Positions 3,131-12,730 of a stretch of DNA of 64,000 nucleotides are shown in pieces. Each line of letters begins with the position of its first letter. Position 1 is the first letter of the stretch. The translations under genes and the position numbers were made by a program. The notes under the pieces are model-generated. The model was not told the DNA's origin. It saw nothing but the letters and a program-made list of their open reading frames with translations, and searched no databases. The DNA comes from a virus: IMG/VR virus record IMGVR_UViG_3300043256_000348, positions 1 to 64,000 of that record; one strand, given 5' to 3'.

Positions 3131-3529
3131 ATGGCCACCGTATCAGGCAAGTACGGCCAGGTGGACGTGGGCTCCAGCACGTTCACGGAGTGCAATCATT
3201 GGACCATGGAGATAGTCGTCGACGCGAGCCAGTTCGGCACGTTCGGCGGCGGCGGAGATAAGACCGGCAACGTCGGTCAGAGGTCCGCAACGGGCACGAT
3301 CGAGGGGCCCTACGACTTGGCCAACCCGGTCGAGCAGGATATCACGGCCGGCTCGTCCGTGACGCTGGTGCTGTACCTCTCAACTGCGGCGGGAGGCGAG
3401 GCTCGAAGCTACACGCTGACTGCCCAGATCACGAGCCTGTCGTTCGAGGTCGAGGGCGATACGGGCGAGAAGGTCTCGTGGTCGGCCAACTTCCAGAGCA
3501 GCGGCGCGATCACGCCGCCGACGGAGTAA
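3131..3529 (+). CDS. Major tail (tube) protein
   Basis: RBS GGAGGA; SGKYGQV...W.MEI...SATGTIEG...FQSSGAIT tube-protein pattern; precedes chaperones and TMP. Confidence 0.75.
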   Translation: MATVSGKYGQVDVGSSTFTECNHWTMEIVVDASQFGTFGGGGDKTGNVGQRSATGTIEGPYDLANPVEQDITAGSSVTLVLYLSTAAGGEARSYTLTAQITSLSFEVEGDTGEKVSWSANFQSSGAITPPTE

Positions 3530-4289: not shown

Positions 4290-6491
4290 ATGGCCCTGAA
4301 GCTAGGAGAGGCGTTCGCCCTGATCGGCCTGAGGACCGGCTCGTTCGACGCCGGGCTGAAGAGGGTCCAGGCGTCGTTCCAGATGGGCATCAGGCGCATG
4401 GAGGCGGTCGCCGCGAAGGCCAGGATGGGGCTGTTGCTAGCCGGCGGCATGGCCGCGGTCGCAGTCAAAGCAGCCGCTGGCTTCGAGCAGGGCATGGCCC
4501 GCGTCGCTGCCTTGACCAGCGCGACGGGAGCCGAGTTCGACGCGCTGAAGCAGAAGGCGAAGGACCTGGGCCGCACGACGGTGTTCTCGGCCCGGCAGTC
4601 GGCGGAGGCCATGGGCTTCTTCGCTCTAGCCGGCTTCAAGTCCGACAAGATCCTCGCGTCTATGAAGCCGACGCTCGACCTGGCCGCGGCCGGGCAGTTG
4701 GACGTGGCTCAGGCTGCGGACATCGCCGCCAAGATTATGGCCGGCATGAAGCTGAGCGCGAGCGAGCTGACCCATACGGTGGACGTGCTGGCCAAGGCGT
4801 TCACCACCAGCAACACGGACCTGGTGCAGCTCGGCGAGGCCATGAGGCACGTCGGGCCGGTCGGCAAAGCGTCCGGCAAGAAGATCGAAGAGCTGGTCGC
4901 CACGATCCAGGTGATGAGCAACGCGGGCATCCAGGGCGCGTCGGCCGGCATGGCGCTGCGCAACATGCTGATCCGGCTCCAGGCCCAGCCGAGCGAGGTG
5001 AAGAAGGCGCTCAAGCTGCTCGGTGTCGAGATCGCCGACGAGTCGGGGAAGATGAAGCACCTCGGGCAGGTCGTCAACGAGGTCAAGGCGGGCCTCCAGA
5101 AGTACACGCTGACGGAGCAGCAGGCGATCATAGCCGCGTTGGCCGGGACCCGCGCGATGGCGGCGTTCAGCGCGATGATGAGCGAGGGGGGCGACGCGAT
5201 CCGCGAGATGGAGAGGCGGCTCCAGGACGCGGGCGGCACAGCCAAGCGGATTGCGGACATACAACTGAACACGTTCCAGGGGCGTCTGACGATACTGAAG
5301 TCGGCGGCCGAGGGGCTGGCGATCACGATCGGCGAGCAGCTTCTGCCGCCGCTGCGGAAGCTGGTCAACCGGATCACGAAGTGGACGAGCGTGTTGGCCG
5401 AGAGCGGCGAGGGCGCCGTGTCGCACGCCCTCGGCATCGCCAAGGTGATCGTCCAGTACGGGATACTGCTCCTGATTATGCCGAAAATCCTCGGGGCCAT
5501 GTCGGCATTGATGGGGCTGACGGCAGCGGGGGGCGCCTTGGCGCTGGGCCTGACAGCGATCGCGGGGATGCTCGGCATGTACGCAATGGCGGCGGCGTCT
5601 GCGGCCGCGTCAGGGAAGGATTTCAATGAGGTCCTGTACGAGCAGCTCACGAACATGACGGGGCTGCGCAACCGATTCAAGGAAATGAGGGAGGAGCAGG
5701 CAAAGCAGGTTGCCGCGACAAAAGATCTGCACAAGATGCAGACGACGGAGACCAAGGGCGGGGAAGCGGCCGCAGACCAATGGTTCGATGAGGTTAAAGC
5801 CCAAGAGGAGCGAGTTAAGGCATCGCAGAAAGTAGTGTCCCAGCGGCGGAAAGACTTGGAGCAATTTGAGAAAAGAAAGGCAGCCGAGGGATTCTTCGCG
5901 AGGGGCGCAAAGTGGCGAGGGGAAGAGCGTGCCCTGAAAGATGAACTCAGGGACGCCTCAGTTCGAGTTCGGGCAGCGGAAGCGGCTTTGGCCGAGGCGC
6001 GGGCCGGGGCAGCCGAGGCCCAAGGAAGAGAGATGCAACGGCAGCTCGTGGAATCACTAGGTCCCCGAACTAAGGACACGAAGTTTGCCAAGCTAATGCA
6101 AACGGTGGCCGAGCAGGAGATGGGCCTGGACGTAGCCCGCGAAGCAAAGCTGGAGGCCGCCCAGCGAAAGCAGTTCGATGCTTTCATGGCGAAGGCCGGT
6201 GGGATGTTGTGGCTCGGCAAAGAGCGGCTAGGAACCATGATGGGGCTACGCGGCATCGGCGGACGGATCGAGGAAGCCGAGGGCCGGGCGAAAGCGGCCC
6301 GACGCACGCCGGAGTTCACGGCCATCGCGGACTTCGCCAAGTCGATCCAGACGCGCATACAGGACAAGAAGGCCATCAACGTGGCCGAGAAGCAATTGGA
6401 GGTACTGAAGAAGCAGCGGGAGATCCAGGAGAAGCGGCTGGTGTCGATCGACGAACAGTTGAAAAAGGGACTCGTGGGGAGGGCTGGCTAA
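4290..6491 (+). CDS. Tail tape measure protein (TP901 family core)
   Basis: FEQGMARVAA, TTVFSARQSAEAM, SNTDLVQLGEAM, GIQGASAGMALR motifs; 733 aa. Confidence 0.92.
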   Translation: MALKLGEAFALIGLRTGSFDAGLKRVQASFQMGIRRMEAVAAKARMGLLLAGGMAAVAVKAAAGFEQGMARVAALTSATGAEFDALKQKAKDLGRTTVFSARQSAEAMGFFALAGFKSDKILASMKPTLDLAAAGQLDVAQAADIAAKIMAGMKLSASELTHTVDVLAKAFTTSNTDLVQLGEAMRHVGPVGKASGKKIEELVATIQVMSNAGIQGASAGMALRNMLIRLQAQPSEVKKALKLLGVEIADESGKMKHLGQVVNEVKAGLQKYTLTEQQAIIAALAGTRAMAAFSAMMSEGGDAIREMERRLQDAGGTAKRIADIQLNTFQGRLTILKSAAEGLAITIGEQLLPPLRKLVNRITKWTSVLAESGEGAVSHALGIAKVIVQYGILLLIMPKILGAMSALMGLTAAGGALALGLTAIAGMLGMYAMAAASAAASGKDFNEVLYEQLTNMTGLRNRFKEMREEQAKQVAATKDLHKMQTTETKGGEAAADQWFDEVKAQEERVKASQKVVSQRRKDLEQFEKRKAAEGFFARGAKWRGEERALKDELRDASVRVRAAEAALAEARAGAAEAQGREMQRQLVESLGPRTKDTKFAKLMQTVAEQEMGLDVAREAKLEAAQRKQFDAFMAKAGGMLWLGKERLGTMMGLRGIGGRIEEAEGRAKAARRTPEFTAIADFAKSIQTRIQDKKAINVAEKQLEVLKKQREIQEKRLVSIDEQLKKGLVGRAG

Positions 6492-7339
6492 TGGCAGTGT
6501 CATTCACTGAGAAGAAGCGGTCGCTGACCTTGGGCATGGACGGGGCGACGGCGACCCGCGTGTTGGAGATCGCTGGGGCGGACTTGGAGGCGCTGTGCGT
6601 GGAGCTATTCTCCGTGGAGTTCCTGGCCGGGCTCGGCTATACGGTGGGCAACCGGGCCCGGCACCCGCAGTACAACTGGCTGAGAGCGGAGGGGCTGAGC
6701 TTCGAGGCGGGCGATCCGGAGAACCCGCCGGCCGTCGCCGGTACGGAGTACGCATTGCTTGACGCGACGGTCACGTACCGCGGCAGGCTGGTGTCCGTTG
6801 ACCTGATGGCCGGCCAGTTCGAGCCGGAGGTGCCGACAGGTACATACCTGTCGCACACCCGCACGGCGACGGCCGAGATGATGACGCTGCCGGGGCACGG
6901 GTTCACCTGGCAGAATGCGGCGGGTGACCCGGTGGGCGAGGACATCGACGCGGGCATCATCATCCCGACGATCACGCACGAGTGGACGTGGTACTACGTC
7001 CTCGACCCGCCCTGGACGAACCTGCGTAAGTATATGGGGTCGGTCAACCGGGCCAACACGCCGTACAACGAGGCGAAGGCCGAGACGCTGCTGTTCGCCG
7101 GCTACTCGGCCAGCCGCGACTGGACGTTCGAGGGGGGCGAATTCTGGAACCTCTCGCTGACGGTGATCGAGAAGTACATCGACCTGACGCCGGACGACGT
7201 GGGCGGTACGATCTACGGCTGGAACCACTTCTGGCATCCGAACGCCGACCCGCCCTGGCAGAAGCTCTGGAACCCGGCGGCGGCTACGGACGAGGTGTAC
7301 CCGCTGGCGAACTTCACCAACCTGTTCCGGGGAGAGTGA
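6491..7339 (+). CDS. Tail tip / distal tail-hub protein (putative)
   Basis: ATG 6491 overlapping TMP stop; position; GWNHFW motif. Confidence 0.6.
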   Translation: MAVSFTEKKRSLTLGMDGATATRVLEIAGADLEALCVELFSVEFLAGLGYTVGNRARHPQYNWLRAEGLSFEAGDPENPPAVAGTEYALLDATVTYRGRLVSVDLMAGQFEPEVPTGTYLSHTRTATAEMMTLPGHGFTWQNAAGDPVGEDIDAGIIIPTITHEWTWYYVLDPPWTNLRKYMGSVNRANTPYNEAKAETLLFAGYSASRDWTFEGGEFWNLSLTVIEKYIDLTPDDVGGTIYGWNHFWHPNADPPWQKLWNPAAATDEVYPLANFTNLFRGE

Positions 7340-7340
7340 C

Positions 7341-8249
7341 GTGGGCCCGCTGACGCCGTGGGAACAGGGCGACTTCATCACTCACCGCCGGCTGAACGAC
7401 ATGCAGCGGCGGGCCGAGCTGGCGGGCAAGGTCCGCGGAGCCGGCGATACCACCGTAGGCGTCAGCATGACCGGCGTGCGGATCGCCTCGCCCCGCGCGA
7501 GCAAGACGATCCCCTTCCTGCTCCAGAACGGGTTGACGTACCCTGCCTTCTCCTTGCAGCCGCCCTATACCGAGGACGCGCAGGCTGTCTACCTGGACAC
7601 ACCCAACACCGACTACTTGGGGCAGACGTCGCGGACGGCCACGCTGTACTACCTGCTCGCATTGCGGGATTCCGGCGACAATTACGTCGGGCTTCCGGCC
7701 TGGCGGTCCGGTATGATCGTATACGCCATTTGGAGCAAGCAGAGCGGGCGGTGGGAAGTGGTTGCTCCTGAGCCGCAGACAACTTGGCCGTTCGAGTTGA
7801 CTGAGAATTTGATATTCGGCAGCAACGCGACGGCTAAGGTGCTGATCCTTTCTGGCGGCACGTACTCAGTTGACGACGATGTGACGTTCGAGGTCTACGA
7901 CCCGTTCAGCAAGTTCAACCAGAACGACAAGCCTACCGGGCAGGGCGGGGCAAGGGGGTACGCGAAGTGGTTGCCGGACAGCGCCCAGTTCGAGATCGTC
8001 GAGCTTGAGCACCAGGCGCGGTGGATCAAGTTCATTTTGAACGCAGCCTTGGCGACTACTGACGCAAGTGTTGCTTGCGACAATGTGACCTACGTCGATG
8101 GCTACCAGCCCGATACGGCAGTCACGACGGTTTACAACGAACCGGCCAGCAGCGATTACATTTACGAGGGGGACAACAACGACAAGGGTCAGGCCGTCTA
8201 CGATCCGGGCAACGACAAATACTGGATTAGAATGGTGGAGTGCCCGTGA
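7341..8249 (+). CDS. Tail tip / fibre-like protein (putative)
   Basis: PWEQGD...RLND N-terminus; three internally similar modules ending WEVV, FEIV, YWIR. Confidence 0.55.
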   Translation: MGPLTPWEQGDFITHRRLNDMQRRAELAGKVRGAGDTTVGVSMTGVRIASPRASKTIPFLLQNGLTYPAFSLQPPYTEDAQAVYLDTPNTDYLGQTSRTATLYYLLALRDSGDNYVGLPAWRSGMIVYAIWSKQSGRWEVVAPEPQTTWPFELTENLIFGSNATAKVLILSGGTYSVDDDVTFEVYDPFSKFNQNDKPTGQGGARGYAKWLPDSAQFEIVELEHQARWIKFILNAALATTDASVACDNVTYVDGYQPDTAVTTVYNEPASSDYIYEGDNNDKGQAVYDPGNDKYWIRMVECP

Positions 8250-8758
8250 TGCCTCGCCACTGGGCAAAACTCCAGAGCGGGCTGTACGTGCCGCCGTTCA
8301 TTGGCCGGTTGGTGCCGAAGATTCCGATGATGACTTTTGCACCGTGGTATCCGTGTGGTTGCTGCGGTGGGGAACCCTGTACGCATTGTTCGGGCACGAC
8401 GCCTTTGCAGTATCAACTCGATGTAAGCGGTGTCGCGGATGAAGATTGTGCCCTTTGCGATGAGACGTATGATGGACAGTTTATATTGACGCAGAGCGGG
8501 GTGGGTAATTGTCGCTGGACATACGATTTTGATTCGGCAGCTTGCGGCGGGCCGCTCAACGACAATTATACTCTGGATATTGGGGCACCAGTAAACAAAA
8601 CCACGTTGGGTTTATCGTTTGGCGGCGTGGGAATTATGGTGTGGAATAAGGTAATCAGTCCGCCCATAGATTGCAGTAGTTTTCAATTGTTATATTCCTC
8701 ACGTAGTCAAACTGAGTGCGCTGGTGTTGGCTCAACTGCCGACCTAACAGCTTTGTAA
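8249..8758 (+). CDS. Cys-rich tail-associated protein with low-GC variable C-terminus
   Basis: PCGCCGGEPCTHC motif; TGATG coupling; AT-richer 3' half. Confidence 0.6.
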   Translation: MPRHWAKLQSGLYVPPFIGRLVPKIPMMTFAPWYPCGCCGGEPCTHCSGTTPLQYQLDVSGVADEDCALCDETYDGQFILTQSGVGNCRWTYDFDSAACGGPLNDNYTLDIGAPVNKTTLGLSFGGVGIMVWNKVISPPIDCSSFQLLYSSRSQTECAGVGSTADLTAL

Positions 8759-9183
8759 TGGACTGCCCCTTCCAACTCAACACCGACGGCCTCTGGCAAT
8801 GCCCGCAATGCAAGTGGGTTTACAAACTGAAAGCCGACAAGCCGCCCCGCCGCAACTGCCCGAAGGCTCCGAATCTTCGCCCGGCAGCCGAGAAACTAGG
8901 GATTGAATGGAAAGATGTAGAGCACTACGCCCAAGCGCTCGCGCGTTGGCGGGCAGCCGGTTATCCGGTGCGAACGGAAGAGGAAACCGCAATATGCTTT
9001 CGGATTTGCGGAGGTGGTTGTGGCACTGGCGGTTGCCAGAAACCGTGTGAGCACTACCGCGCAGGAAAGATATTCGACGGTGGACGCTGTAAACTGTGCC
9101 GCTGCGGCGTGTCCGAGAGCCGCTTCGCTCTGGTGAACAAGATCAAGATGGTAACGGAGAGTTGCCCAGATGGGAGGTGGTGA
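8758..9183 (+). CDS. Cys-rich zinc-binding protein
   Basis: TAATG coupling; several CxxC motifs and C-terminal ESCPDGRW. Confidence 0.6.
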   Translation: MDCPFQLNTDGLWQCPQCKWVYKLKADKPPRRNCPKAPNLRPAAEKLGIEWKDVEHYAQALARWRAAGYPVRTEEETAICFRICGGGCGTGGCQKPCEHYRAGKIFDGGRCKLCRCGVSESRFALVNKIKMVTESCPDGRW

Positions 9184-9297
9184 TGAGCGTTCACGTCGTC
9201 GAAGGCGGAGCCGGTCCCATGATCCACGTTTGTAATCCCCTATTTTTGGCTCATGGAGTGGTTGTGGATATTGTCGTGGTGGTTCAGCCCGTCGCCC

Positions 9298-10242
9298 TTA
9301 CCGTCCTCCCATGCTTTGGCCTTCCCTGGCAATCTTTCGGGACTCAAGATAGTTGTTGCCCTTGGCTACTTCCATCGTGGTGATCAGCCCCGTCTGCGGG
9401 TTCAACGTCACCCAGAGATTTTTCAGGTCCTGCCAGTTGGTCAAGCTGTCCTCGGCCGTGCCGGCCGGGACCCGCTCCTGCTTGCCGACCAGCAGAAAGA
9501 TCGGTTCGGCCCCTGAGTGGACGTGACCATCATGGTAGACGCGCTCCAACGATCCATTGGGCGAAAACATGATGTAGACGCGCGAATTCGTTTGCGCGCC
9601 GATGGAATGCGAATCAGTCCCCGAGAATTCCAGATCGATGATTGTGCGGGCGGGCAATTGGAGGGAACTAACAGCCGACTTGCTGGGCTGCCGGGTGATC
9701 TGATAGGCCACCGGCGCGGATTGCGCTGGGGCCTTAGGCCAAGGCAACCTCTGCCCCTGAGACAGATCGATTTGAAGCGTCAATGAATCGGCGGTGCGCT
9801 GTACGATTTCATACATCGGCCCCTGATAGTTGAACTGTACAAGATCCCCTTGGCTGACTAGGCTGATATTGATTGGTGAGGTGAGTTGTGCGAGCACGGT
9901 TGCCATACCGCCAGATAGGGAATCCACCCGCAATTGCGCAGCCGCATCGAGCGTCTCGCCAGCGTACGGGGGCGGCACTTCGACCTGTTGGAGCACCGCG
10001 GCGCACTGCGGCAGGCCGTCCATCCGCCGGATCATCACGCCGCAGGGCCGCCCGGTCTCCATTGCCCGGTTCCGGGCCGAGGAGAAATAAATGTTGACTT
10101 GCCGGGCCGCCTCGCGAGTTCGCCGCTCTTCCATCGAGAAGTCTATCATCCGGGCACCGACCGCCAACAGGACCACGATGATAGAAATCGCTACCAGCAA
10201 CTCGACCAGCGTGAAACCACTCTGCTTTGTTCTGGCCCTCAT
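9298..10242 (-). CDS. Type IV prepilin-like (minor pilin/pseudopilin) protein with N-terminal cleavage/methylation site
   Basis: Class III signal MRARTKQSG-FTLVELLVAISIIVVLL with E5; AAGGGAG RBS; ARNRAMETGRPCGV as in GspH/FimT-like proteins. Confidence 0.9.
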   Translation of the reverse strand: MRARTKQSGFTLVELLVAISIIVVLLAVGARMIDFSMEERRTREAARQVNIYFSSARNRAMETGRPCGVMIRRMDGLPQCAAVLQQVEVPPPYAGETLDAAAQLRVDSLSGGMATVLAQLTSPINISLVSQGDLVQFNYQGPMYEIVQRTADSLTLQIDLSQGQRLPWPKAPAQSAPVAYQITRQPSKSAVSSLQLPARTIIDLEFSGTDSHSIGAQTNSRVYIMFSPNGSLERVYHDGHVHSGAEPIFLLVGKQERVPAGTAEDSLTNWQDLKNLWVTLNPQTGLITTMEVAKGNNYLESRKIAREGQSMGGR

Positions 10243-10276
10243 CGTTTTGCTCCCTTGAGTTCAGCCCCGCTTAGCC

Positions 10277-10284
10277 ATTATACC
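10277..10284 (-). promoter_or_regulatory. GGTATAAT -10 element upstream of the pilin gene
   Basis: ATTATACC on + strand, about 35 nt upstream of pilin ATG; same octamer recurs across the window. Confidence 0.6.
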
Positions 10285-10331
10285 CAATTGGCACCGCAGA
10301 TACCCCCGAAATCCGCCAGAGAGTCAGTTCG

Positions 10332-11015
10332 ATGATCCAAGTCGGCATCACCGCATCGCCCCGGCCCGTGGACTACCTGCCGGCCACCGTGGCGAGCCTC
10401 CGGGCCGCCGGCTGGCCCGATCCCGTAGTGTTCGCCGAGCCCGGCACGCCCGCACCCCCGGACTGCCGCTTTGTCGCCGCCCAGCGCCGCCTGGAGCCGT
10501 GGTTTGCCTTCCAAACGGCTCTCGGCAGCCTCTTGGCAACCGGCCCGCAGGGAGCGAGCCTGGCCATCTTTCAGGATGATGTGCTCGCGGCCCGGAACCT
10601 GCGGGCGTGGCTGGACGCAGAGCCGTGGCCCCCGGACGCGGGGGTGGTGTCGCTCTACCTGTCGGAGGCGCAGGCGGAGGGGCGGCCGCTCGGCTGGTCT
10701 GCCCTCGACCCGGACGCCAACCCCTACGGGGCCTGCGGGGTCGTGATGAGGCCGGAGGTCGCCCGGAGGCTCTTGGACGACCCTCCCCACCGGGGCAACG
10801 GCCGGATGACGGACACCTGGCTCGGCGTGTTCTGCGAGCAGGCCGGGCTACGGTTTTGGCAACACAAGCCGAGCCTGATCCGGCACGTCGGCCGGGAATC
10901 TTCGCTGTCGCGGAAGGGGCACAGGCCGATCGTCCGGCCGTGGATTCCCGCTAGGCACGAAGGGGATTTCGTCGAGGACGCCGCGCTGTTAGCCCACGGG
11001 CGGATCACGGTATAA
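10332..11015 (+). CDS. Glycosyltransferase, GT-A fold (GT2/GT25-like)
   Basis: LAIFQDDV DxD-type motif; YGACGVVM; PSLIRHVG. Confidence 0.7.
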   Translation: MIQVGITASPRPVDYLPATVASLRAAGWPDPVVFAEPGTPAPPDCRFVAAQRRLEPWFAFQTALGSLLATGPQGASLAIFQDDVLAARNLRAWLDAEPWPPDAGVVSLYLSEAQAEGRPLGWSALDPDANPYGACGVVMRPEVARRLLDDPPHRGNGRMTDTWLGVFCEQAGLRFWQHKPSLIRHVGRESSLSRKGHRPIVRPWIPARHEGDFVEDAALLAHGRITV

Positions 11016-12632: not shown

Positions 12633-12730
12633 GGGTATTTCTAAAATACTGAGCACTTAACTGTTTACGAGGTATAGGGTTACGGGGCGAAAATCCCGCT
12701 ATTAGATTGGGCTCATCCCCAGGTATAATT
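12632..12730 (+). promoter_or_regulatory. 99-bp promoter/operator element, copy A
   Basis: Ungapped 78/99 match to reverse complement of 45573-45671; ends in GGTATAAT. Confidence 0.8.

Follow-up and report, generated by a model that had tools for sequence, protein, structure and literature searches.

Why should a phage without pilus machinery keep a single intact gene for a type IV pilin beside its tail genes, and what might the product do in the infected cell? The question is raised by the IMG/VR virus record IMGVR_UViG_3300043256_000348, of whose 92,947 bp the first 64 kb (positions 1 to 64,000) are referred to here as the window. The record ends in 127-nt exact direct terminal repeats, has a CheckV completeness of 100%, and is a complete ~93-kb phage of planctomycete bacteria. 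Between its tail and glycan modules, on the opposite strand, an open reading frame (ORF) runs uninterrupted through 314 codons and encodes a prepilin, P0001. The answer favoured here, with slightly better than even confidence and by analogy with the P-FimU protein of Pseudomonas phages, is that the phage pilin would re-surface the tip of the host pilus so that other phages cannot attach.

The N-terminus of P0001 reads M-R-A-R-T-K-Q-S-G followed by F-T-L-V-E, with Gly at −1, Phe at +1, and Glu at +5. The protein matches the N_methyl family PF07963 at 5.1e-8 (32.6 bits against a cut-off of 21.2) and TIGR02532 with 27 bits (cut-off 16.3), and it has the features by which type IV pilins and pseudopilins are recognised: Gly at −1, a hydrophobic residue at +1, Glu at +5, and a long hydrophobic helix. 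The ORF, the motif, and the PF07963 match confirm the original prediction of a complete antisense prepilin of 314 aa (G-FTLVELL, E5) with its own ribosome-binding site and −10 element. An AlphaFold2 model of P0001, made with 32 orthologues, has a mean predicted local distance difference test score (pLDDT) of 89.7, and its helix spans residues 12–63. In a VIA-align comparison with 48,161 chains the model is closest to FimU of Pseudomonas aeruginosa (4ipu; Z 11.5, root-mean-square deviation 2.6 Å, 130/137 residues aligned), followed by EpsH of Vibrio cholerae (4dq9; Z 11.1) and GspH of Escherichia coli (2knq; Z 9.0); the other chains, all with Z of 7.9 or less, match only an inserted six-stranded barrel at approximately residues 91–240. 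Foldseek gives a probability of 1.0 for FimU and 0.98 for EpsH, with all E-values above 0.001, and the fold call is based on the VIA-align Z-scores together with the Foldseek probabilities. P0001 shares with FimU, EpsH, and GspH the fold and the class III signal with Glu at +5, but differs from them in carrying the inserted barrel of 100–150 residues. The GspH equivalog model TIGR01708 reaches 30.4 bits against a cut-off of 80, and only over residues 7–73, i.e., the N-terminal helix. Judged from the model, P0001 is a minor pilin of the FimU/GspH class by fold and not an equivalog, with an extra barrel common to the host orthologues; of the initial identification the pilin stands, and the fold comparison replaces a generic pilin with a FimU/GspH-class minor pilin. 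The barrel is also the most variable region of the protein (59–61% identity versus 70–78% for the helix and the N-terminal core). Such variability fits an exposed surface under diversifying pressure, and a change of allele could by itself alter recognition.

A search of 5.8 billion proteins returned 420 homologues of P0001, all named ones being planctomycete (Thermoguttaceae, Planctomycetes), and the best non-self matches are 70, 68, and 68% identical over 99% of the length. Scanning of species-representative genomes gave 51 loci, nearly all of them named Pirellulales, Thermoguttaceae, or Planctomycetaceae; a non-planctomycete exception, L006, lies on a contig binned as Candidatus Nealsonbacteria. 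The host cluster comprises, in this order, genes for a PilT-like ATPase, a PilB-like ATPase with MshEN, and PilC, four N_methyl genes (genes 1 to 4), and a gene for a protein of ~1700 aa. In every locus with enough flanking sequence, about 50 in all, the homologue of P0001 is the third of the four N_methyl genes. The closest genome match, locus L005 (68%; identical to the metagenome contig L058), lies in such a host pilus cluster. Among the closest protein matches P0004 alone was placed on a contig, through L058/L005 and therefore in host context, and the additional loci from the metagenome scan are all in host context as well. On the basis of the conserved third-of-four position, the phage gene can be considered an orthologue, displaced from its usual place, of a subunit that is core and single-copy in a planctomycete type IV pilus-like system. 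In the phage it stands alone, away from the position after PilT, PilB, and PilC that the gene occupies in the hosts. It is also worth mentioning that intergenic regions of L058 contain tandem heptamer arrays, of the ATTGCA(A/G) type before gene 3 (2180–2225) and of the GGCGGAA type after it (3190–3260), and that translation of the former array accounts for the odd leaders, 'QIADCKLQI', seen in many database entries.

In a maximum-likelihood tree of 120 sequences, P0001 groups with P0006 and P0007 (support 98), beside P0003 and P0004; the Shimodaira–Hasegawa-like approximate likelihood ratio test (SH-aLRT) gives its clade a support of 98–100, and its terminal branch, of 0.24, is no longer than those of its neighbours. 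A host origin of the pilin is supported by the orthology to a single-copy cluster gene, by the 68–70% identity to host-cluster copies, and by the nesting among host-type sequences, in agreement with the captured host pilin that had been proposed; the search for a donor lineage leads to planctomycete homologues and to the pilus cluster of Pirellulales and Thermoguttaceae. Alignment with 31 other orthologues gives 74 columns of at least 90% conservation among these; P0001 keeps 72 of them, and both changes are conservative.

The DNA of the pilin resembles host-locus DNA (74% similarity) over 10214–9297, and the 117 nt upstream of this stretch, with the leader, the ribosome-binding site, and the −10 motif, are not host-like. 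The −10 motif, GGTATAAT, is present in nine copies in the window against 0.47 expected, a number reached by no shuffle, and its density of 9 per 93 kb of phage versus 4 per 656 kb of host loci corresponds to a 16-fold enrichment. The copies are located at 10277(−), 11009(+), 12722(+), 31854(+), 40780(−), 45574(−), 46348(+), 55993(+), and 61215(+), most of them directly preceding gene starts, and none is found in the tail genes or in the last 29 kb of the genome; the two at 12722 and 45574 have a longer upstream stretch in common. The motif is also kept in a relative of the phage, L002, ahead of the second transferase gene. By its distribution GGTATAAT is phage-specific, and it is probably a promoter class for the non-structural genes of the phage. 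Since the upstream 117 nt are not host-like and GGTATAAT is enriched in the phage, the pilin appears to have been placed under a phage-type signal. Retention of the gene by the phage is supported by the conserved columns together with this over-represented −10 motif of the phage's own; the earlier suggestions that the pilin is kept by the phage and that its −10 element recurs in the window both hold.

Table 1. Features of the pilin cassette and its surroundings in the window (feature; positions; strand; basis or remark).
Tape measure protein gene	4290..6491	+	PF10145 1.6e-45, phrog_1533 1.6e-94; marks the tail module ending at the pilin slot
Cys-rich last gene of the tail-side module, 141 aa from ATG 8758	8758..9183	+	first ~40 residues alone match L002
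Repeat copy 1, relic of the downstream gene's start region (spacer, ATG, 8 nt)	9208..9229	+	abuts host-derived DNA
Remnant of host gene-2 pilin (last ~18 codons, stop, 12 nt downstream)	9229..9294	−	91–95% identical to L058 2124–2189
Phage-borne prepilin gene P0001, 314 aa	9298..10242	−	host gene-3 orthologue; FimU/GspH-class fold with inserted beta-barrel
Class III signal leader, 9 residues ending in Gly, with predicted prepilin-peptidase cleavage site	10216..10242	−	sequence and family matches
AAGGGAG ribosome-binding site, 6 nt before the pilin ATG	10249..10255	−	sequence
GGTATAAT −10-like motif, 34 nt before the pilin ATG	10277..10284	−	one of nine phage copies; probably a phage promoter element
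Repeat copy 2, working start region of ORF 10332–11015	10321..10342	+	equivalent ATG is the start in the L002 orthologue
First gene of the glycan module	10332..11015	+	GT-A-like by Atlas lead only; 80% identical to the L002/L003 orthologue

The cassette is flanked by an 11-nt repeat (9219–9229 and 10332–10342, 10 of 11 positions matching, 1113 bp apart), the second copy of which holds the ATG of the first gene of the glycan module. Taken alone, the 11-mer is within chance (P 0.04 in shuffles, 0.11 among real window pairs of the same geometry); a repeat search extends it to the 22 nt listed in Table 1, with 17 matching positions (P = 0.003 in shuffles, 0.007 among genomic pairs). The host-derived DNA reaches to 9229/9230 and stops precisely where copy 1 has its inner edge. 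Two near-identical IMG/VR fragments, L002 and L003, come from relatives of the phage, with 80% identity in the gene downstream of the cassette, 55% in a 302-aa tail protein, 33% in a 172-aa protein, and 68% over the first 41 residues of the Cys-rich protein. In both, the orthologue of the downstream gene begins 13–25 nt after the Cys-rich gene, and in L002 its start is the equivalent ATG, with a similar GAGC..GC.ATG stretch ahead of it. An insertion at the start of the downstream gene with a duplication of ~22 nt is supported by the significant repeat, by the host DNA ending at the inner edge of copy 1, and by the adjacency of the flanking genes in L002/L003. The five mismatches of the repeat suggest either that the insertion is not recent or that a related phage was the source of the incoming piece, which brought along that phage's copy of the start region. 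Terminal inverted repeats and a second gene are absent from the cassette, so that despite the direct repeat it does not resemble an insertion of the transposon or insertion-sequence type, and no flanking motif common to the other phage pilin cassettes was found.

The sequence TGATG occupies 9181–9185, and its ATG at 9183 is in frame with that at 9219, as originally described, together with the two repeat copies and their spacing. The downstream gene was predicted to have been coupled in frame to this TGATG before the insertion, a reading from ATG 9183 that was rejected since the L002 orthologue has no matching 12-residue extension; compared with L002, the ancestral start is placed at ATG 9219, with its own GAAGGCGGAG-type site. 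The prediction of an empty site in relatives is borne out as far as the adjacent flanking genes without a pilin are concerned, but not in the coupling. A 67-codon ORF at 9183–9383(+), which begins at the TGATG, includes the relic start at 9219, and is antisense to the 3' end of the pilin gene, was also seen; nothing suggests that it is a gene. The designation of the downstream gene as a glycosyltransferase keeps as its basis the Atlas lead, and searches of Pfam, PHROG, and NCBIfam gave no match for it, nor was any relative of solved structure detectable by sequence. Its possible paralogy with the second transferase was rejected on comparison.

Upstream of the cassette, the stretch that is not homologous to L002 begins at 8866, inside the Cys-rich gene, the C-terminal part of which in L002 (5833–5963) is unrelated to window positions 8866–9183. 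Since contigs of another study also stop matching at 8863–8867, position 8866 looks like a separate, seemingly recurrent recombination breakpoint, within a gene that travels with the pilin in the viral contigs L068 and L062.

Directly after the stop codon of the gene-3 pilin lies a 66-nt remnant of a gene-2 pilin, in which the conserved C-terminal DNIHNH motif is retained. In the hosts (L058/L005) the equivalent 3' end of gene 2 lies upstream of gene 3, not downstream. The arrangement in the phage suggests that an older cassette of the gene-2 type was converted to the gene-3 type by recombination with a host cluster, or that the donor carried a tandem duplication; a circular intermediate is another possible cause.

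Single pilins are present in other viruses as well. Profile scans of IMG/VR revealed solitary pilins of the gene-2 type in six viral contigs (L062–L067) and of the gene-4 type in three (L068–L070); the gene-3 type is represented by the window and L004, the latter being the only contig obtained in the IMG/VR scan with the pilin-alignment profile. No other pilus-cluster gene was found within 6 kb of the orphan pilin in L004 or L062–L070. In at least six of these ten contigs the pilin is located at the end of the tail module or close to it. In most of the contigs it is the sole gene on its strand and converges on a gene run headed by an ORF of 600–800 aa, which in L004, L062, L064, L068, and L069 is the tape measure protein. 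L004 has no other homology to the window; its gene-3-type pilin (5986–6966) is convergent with the tape-measure and distal tail genes, has Ala instead of Gly before F-T-I-I-E, and sits elsewhere in the tree on a very long branch of 1.82, suggestive of an independent, older capture. The neighbours of the pilin recur too: distant homologues of the Cys-rich protein of the window are found beside it in L068 (37%) and L062 (40%), of the 172-aa protein in L062 and L064, of the downstream gene in L067, and of the third transferase in L063. Queried with the Cys-rich protein, a viral scan yielded no relative. In L064 a UDP-glucose dehydrogenase gene lies on the other side of the pilin, in a layout resembling the tail–pilin–glycan order of the window.

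From their gene content, distantly related planctomycete siphophages keep a single host pilin, of varying type, at the end of the tail module. It is a tentative further proposal, to which we give somewhat less than even weight, that siphophages of Pirellulales and Thermoguttaceae have a dedicated 'pilin slot' in which pilins of the gene-2, gene-3, and gene-4 types would be swapped by recombination, the remnant in the window being the footprint of one such switch, and that the receptor at the pilus tip would be contested through interchangeable parts. The adjacent Cys-rich protein on the tail side is possibly part of the swapped set.

The genes at 4290–9183(+) form the distal part of a siphovirus-type tail module and comprise, in order, the tape measure gene, three genes without a family match, and the Cys-rich gene. 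The long glycan module that begins at 10332 encodes transferases, a GDP-mannose dehydratase, a DegT aminotransferase, and a radical-SAM enzyme, with methylases and helicases alongside. In the complete 93-kb record the pilin is the only N_methyl gene, and neither an A24 prepilin peptidase nor a T2SSE ATPase was matched. As these are absent from the phage, the pilin can act only via the machinery of the host.

A precedent for such action has recently been described. The F10-like phages of P. aeruginosa carry a copy of FimU, P-FimU, among their tail genes (Sztanko et al., Cell Rep 2026; PMC12952977). P-FimU is built into the pilus tip, the pilus stays functional, and tip-binding phages are blocked; phage copies of PilA, in Xylella prophages and in virulent phages, are listed as well (PMC12952977). 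As in the P-FimU phages, a minor pilin of the FimU/GspH class accompanies the tail genes of a phage without pilus machinery, and a replacement of the tip subunit is presumed here too. By the same steps, the precursor of P0001 would insert into the inner membrane of the host and be cut after Gly9 by the host prepilin peptidase. The mature protein would join the minor-pilin complex that primes and caps the host type IV pilus, displacing the FimU/GspH-class subunit of the host, and the variable barrel of the phage allele would give the pilus tip a different surface. Tip-binding phages, whether kin or competitors, would then no longer adsorb to the infected cell; in a milder form of the mechanism, an excess of the subunit would disturb pilus assembly. 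The same mechanism as for P-FimU is favoured on account of the same fold class, the similar location, and the same dependence on the host machinery. The two cases differ in several respects. The host of the window phage belongs to the phylum Planctomycetota. P0001 is twice as long as P-FimU, and its inserted barrel is also present in the host orthologues. It is 68–70% identical to host copies, compared with 28% for P-FimU, and is without phage-specific loops. It is encoded antisense at the end of the tail module, whereas P-FimU is flanked by the genes for the tube and the chaperone. The window phage yielded no integrase.

Several observations weigh against exclusion at the pilus tip. That the gene is transcribed, that its product is processed and built into the pilus, and that other phages are excluded is all inferred, and the role of the pilus as a receptor of the phage or its rivals is an assumption. 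Expression of the pilin is likewise deduced from its signals: a scan revealed neither a complete sigma-70 promoter nor a terminator for the gene, and the region downstream of it has no terminator and no unusual folding (fold z-score 0.30). The identity of P0001 to the host orthologues (66.5%) is close to that among the host orthologues themselves (67.5%), and the same is true region by region; the sequences align collinearly, with P0001 one of the shortest family members and having neither phage-specific loops nor a C-terminal extension. The phage copy may be a recent, ordinary allele, and the comparison on which the proposed re-surfacing draws is one with host orthologues from databases, not with the allele of the phage's own host. 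The close relatives do without the gene, as the L002 and L003 fragments contain no pilin, between the flanking genes or elsewhere, and no remnant. Finally, no match to an integrase or a resolvase (PF00589, PF00239) was found in the complete record. The phage may be virulent, or it may enter lysogeny by unrecognised means; the prophage-defence setting of P-FimU is for this reason not directly transferable, and the lysogens mentioned in the original prediction are doubtful.

Other explanations of the locus can be considered, of which an assembly chimera of phage and host DNA is extremely improbable. In the Logan re-assembly of the probable source run, from marine sediment, a 12.8-kb contig covers 7500–10009 at a depth of 30.7 and a 37-kb contig covers 9980–12000 at 29.7, each with 0 differences, although these contigs, probably from the same read set as the window, are not fully independent evidence. 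Both combine phage genes with part of the pilin, their overlap is 30 nt, and the joined ORF is in frame and conserved throughout. The break between them (9980–10035), which speaks for a chimera and explains the 245-aa partial database record P0002 that starts at residue 70, is located inside the pilin gene and not at the cassette borders; the latter lie well inside the contigs without a step in depth, so that the junctions, at which a change in coverage would have pointed to a chimera, are bridged. Many unrelated contigs pile up at 10176–10218, the conserved pilin helix. A true but neutral passenger, i.e., a recently captured and still undecayed host fragment with no role in the phage, seems quite unlikely. 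It would account for an identity to hosts that equals that between hosts, for the still recognisable non-coding gene-2 remnant, and for the close relatives without the gene. However, with divergence at 5 of the 22 positions of its duplicated target, the insertion is not a very recent one, yet 72 of the 74 conserved columns remain; the upstream 117 nt do not resemble host DNA and contain a phage motif; and single pilins recur in ten other viral contigs. Parts of the cassette are also held by Logan contigs of two other studies, X2, with an 882-nt contig ~93% identical to 9311–10191 (881 nt) and another contig in which 8811 is joined to 9295, and X3, with a 7,957-nt contig at a depth of 22 that matches the cassette ends at 9207–9300 and 10193–10354 (with a 21-nt insertion) and not the body at 80% likeness, all these matches being leads only, from contigs that were not read.

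Two further readings grant the pilin a function in the host cell. It may be a poison or a modifier of pilus dynamics, an excess of the minor pilin, made from a strong phage promoter, shifting the minor-to-major ratio and altering assembly or retraction, with fewer superinfections or a smaller loss of progeny as the result. We regard this as unlikely, even though only one of the four subunits is encoded, a phage-type −10 motif precedes the gene, and the protein is like an ordinary host allele with unaltered surface loops. Disruption of assembly by over-expressed FimU is among the findings cited in PMC12952977, and in V. cholerae pilus dynamics are set by the stoichiometry between the minor pilins and the major ones (PMC13249403), but over-expression there raised activity and did not block it. 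The conservation of the whole protein, including the head domains, also exceeds what such a role needs, since truncated pilins would suffice. Little probability is given to the supply of a limiting pilus subunit in support of host adhesion, motility, or DNA uptake during infection. A native-like, fully conserved protein and a large adjoining surface-glycan module would suit this role; against it, one of four tip subunits cannot sustain the pilus if host synthesis stops, and the position beside tail-tip genes in many unrelated phages points to adsorption.

The tip-exclusion reading can be set beside other systems. The phage PilA copies, termed P-PilA, are likewise copies of a structural pilus subunit, some of them in non-temperate phages, with the same presumed role, but they are major pilins, and P0001 is a minor subunit of the tip complex. 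Tip and Aqs1 of Pseudomonas phages are small cytoplasmic inhibitors of PilB. They too are made by phages and keep out other phages through an action on type IV pili, as inhibitors of the motor ATPase and not as a pilus subunit. The lambdoid morons are genes with their own signals located between two genes that are adjacent in relatives. The pilin resembles them in lying, in the opposite orientation and with its own −10 motif and ribosome-binding site, between genes adjacent in L002/L003; it differs in that no terminator was found, in that the −10 motif is the phage's own and not imported, and in the ~22-nt target duplication. To our knowledge, the replacement of a receptor by a phage-made pilus subunit has been shown experimentally only in 2026, and only in Pseudomonas phages. 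The phage-borne pilin as a kind is already published; what is added to the published case is the recurring slot, in which the pilin type changes, and the gene-2 remnant.

The case indicates that phages of a distant and scarcely studied phylum have also acquired subunits of the FimU/GspH class. The eleven viral records, with three subunit types and at least seven pilins at or near the end of the tail module, suggest that the practice is common there, and they hint, for the first time and indirectly, at type IV pili as phage receptors in Planctomycetes. The empty slot and the cassettes of the gene-2, gene-3, and gene-4 types form a natural series for studying the competition of phages over a receptor.

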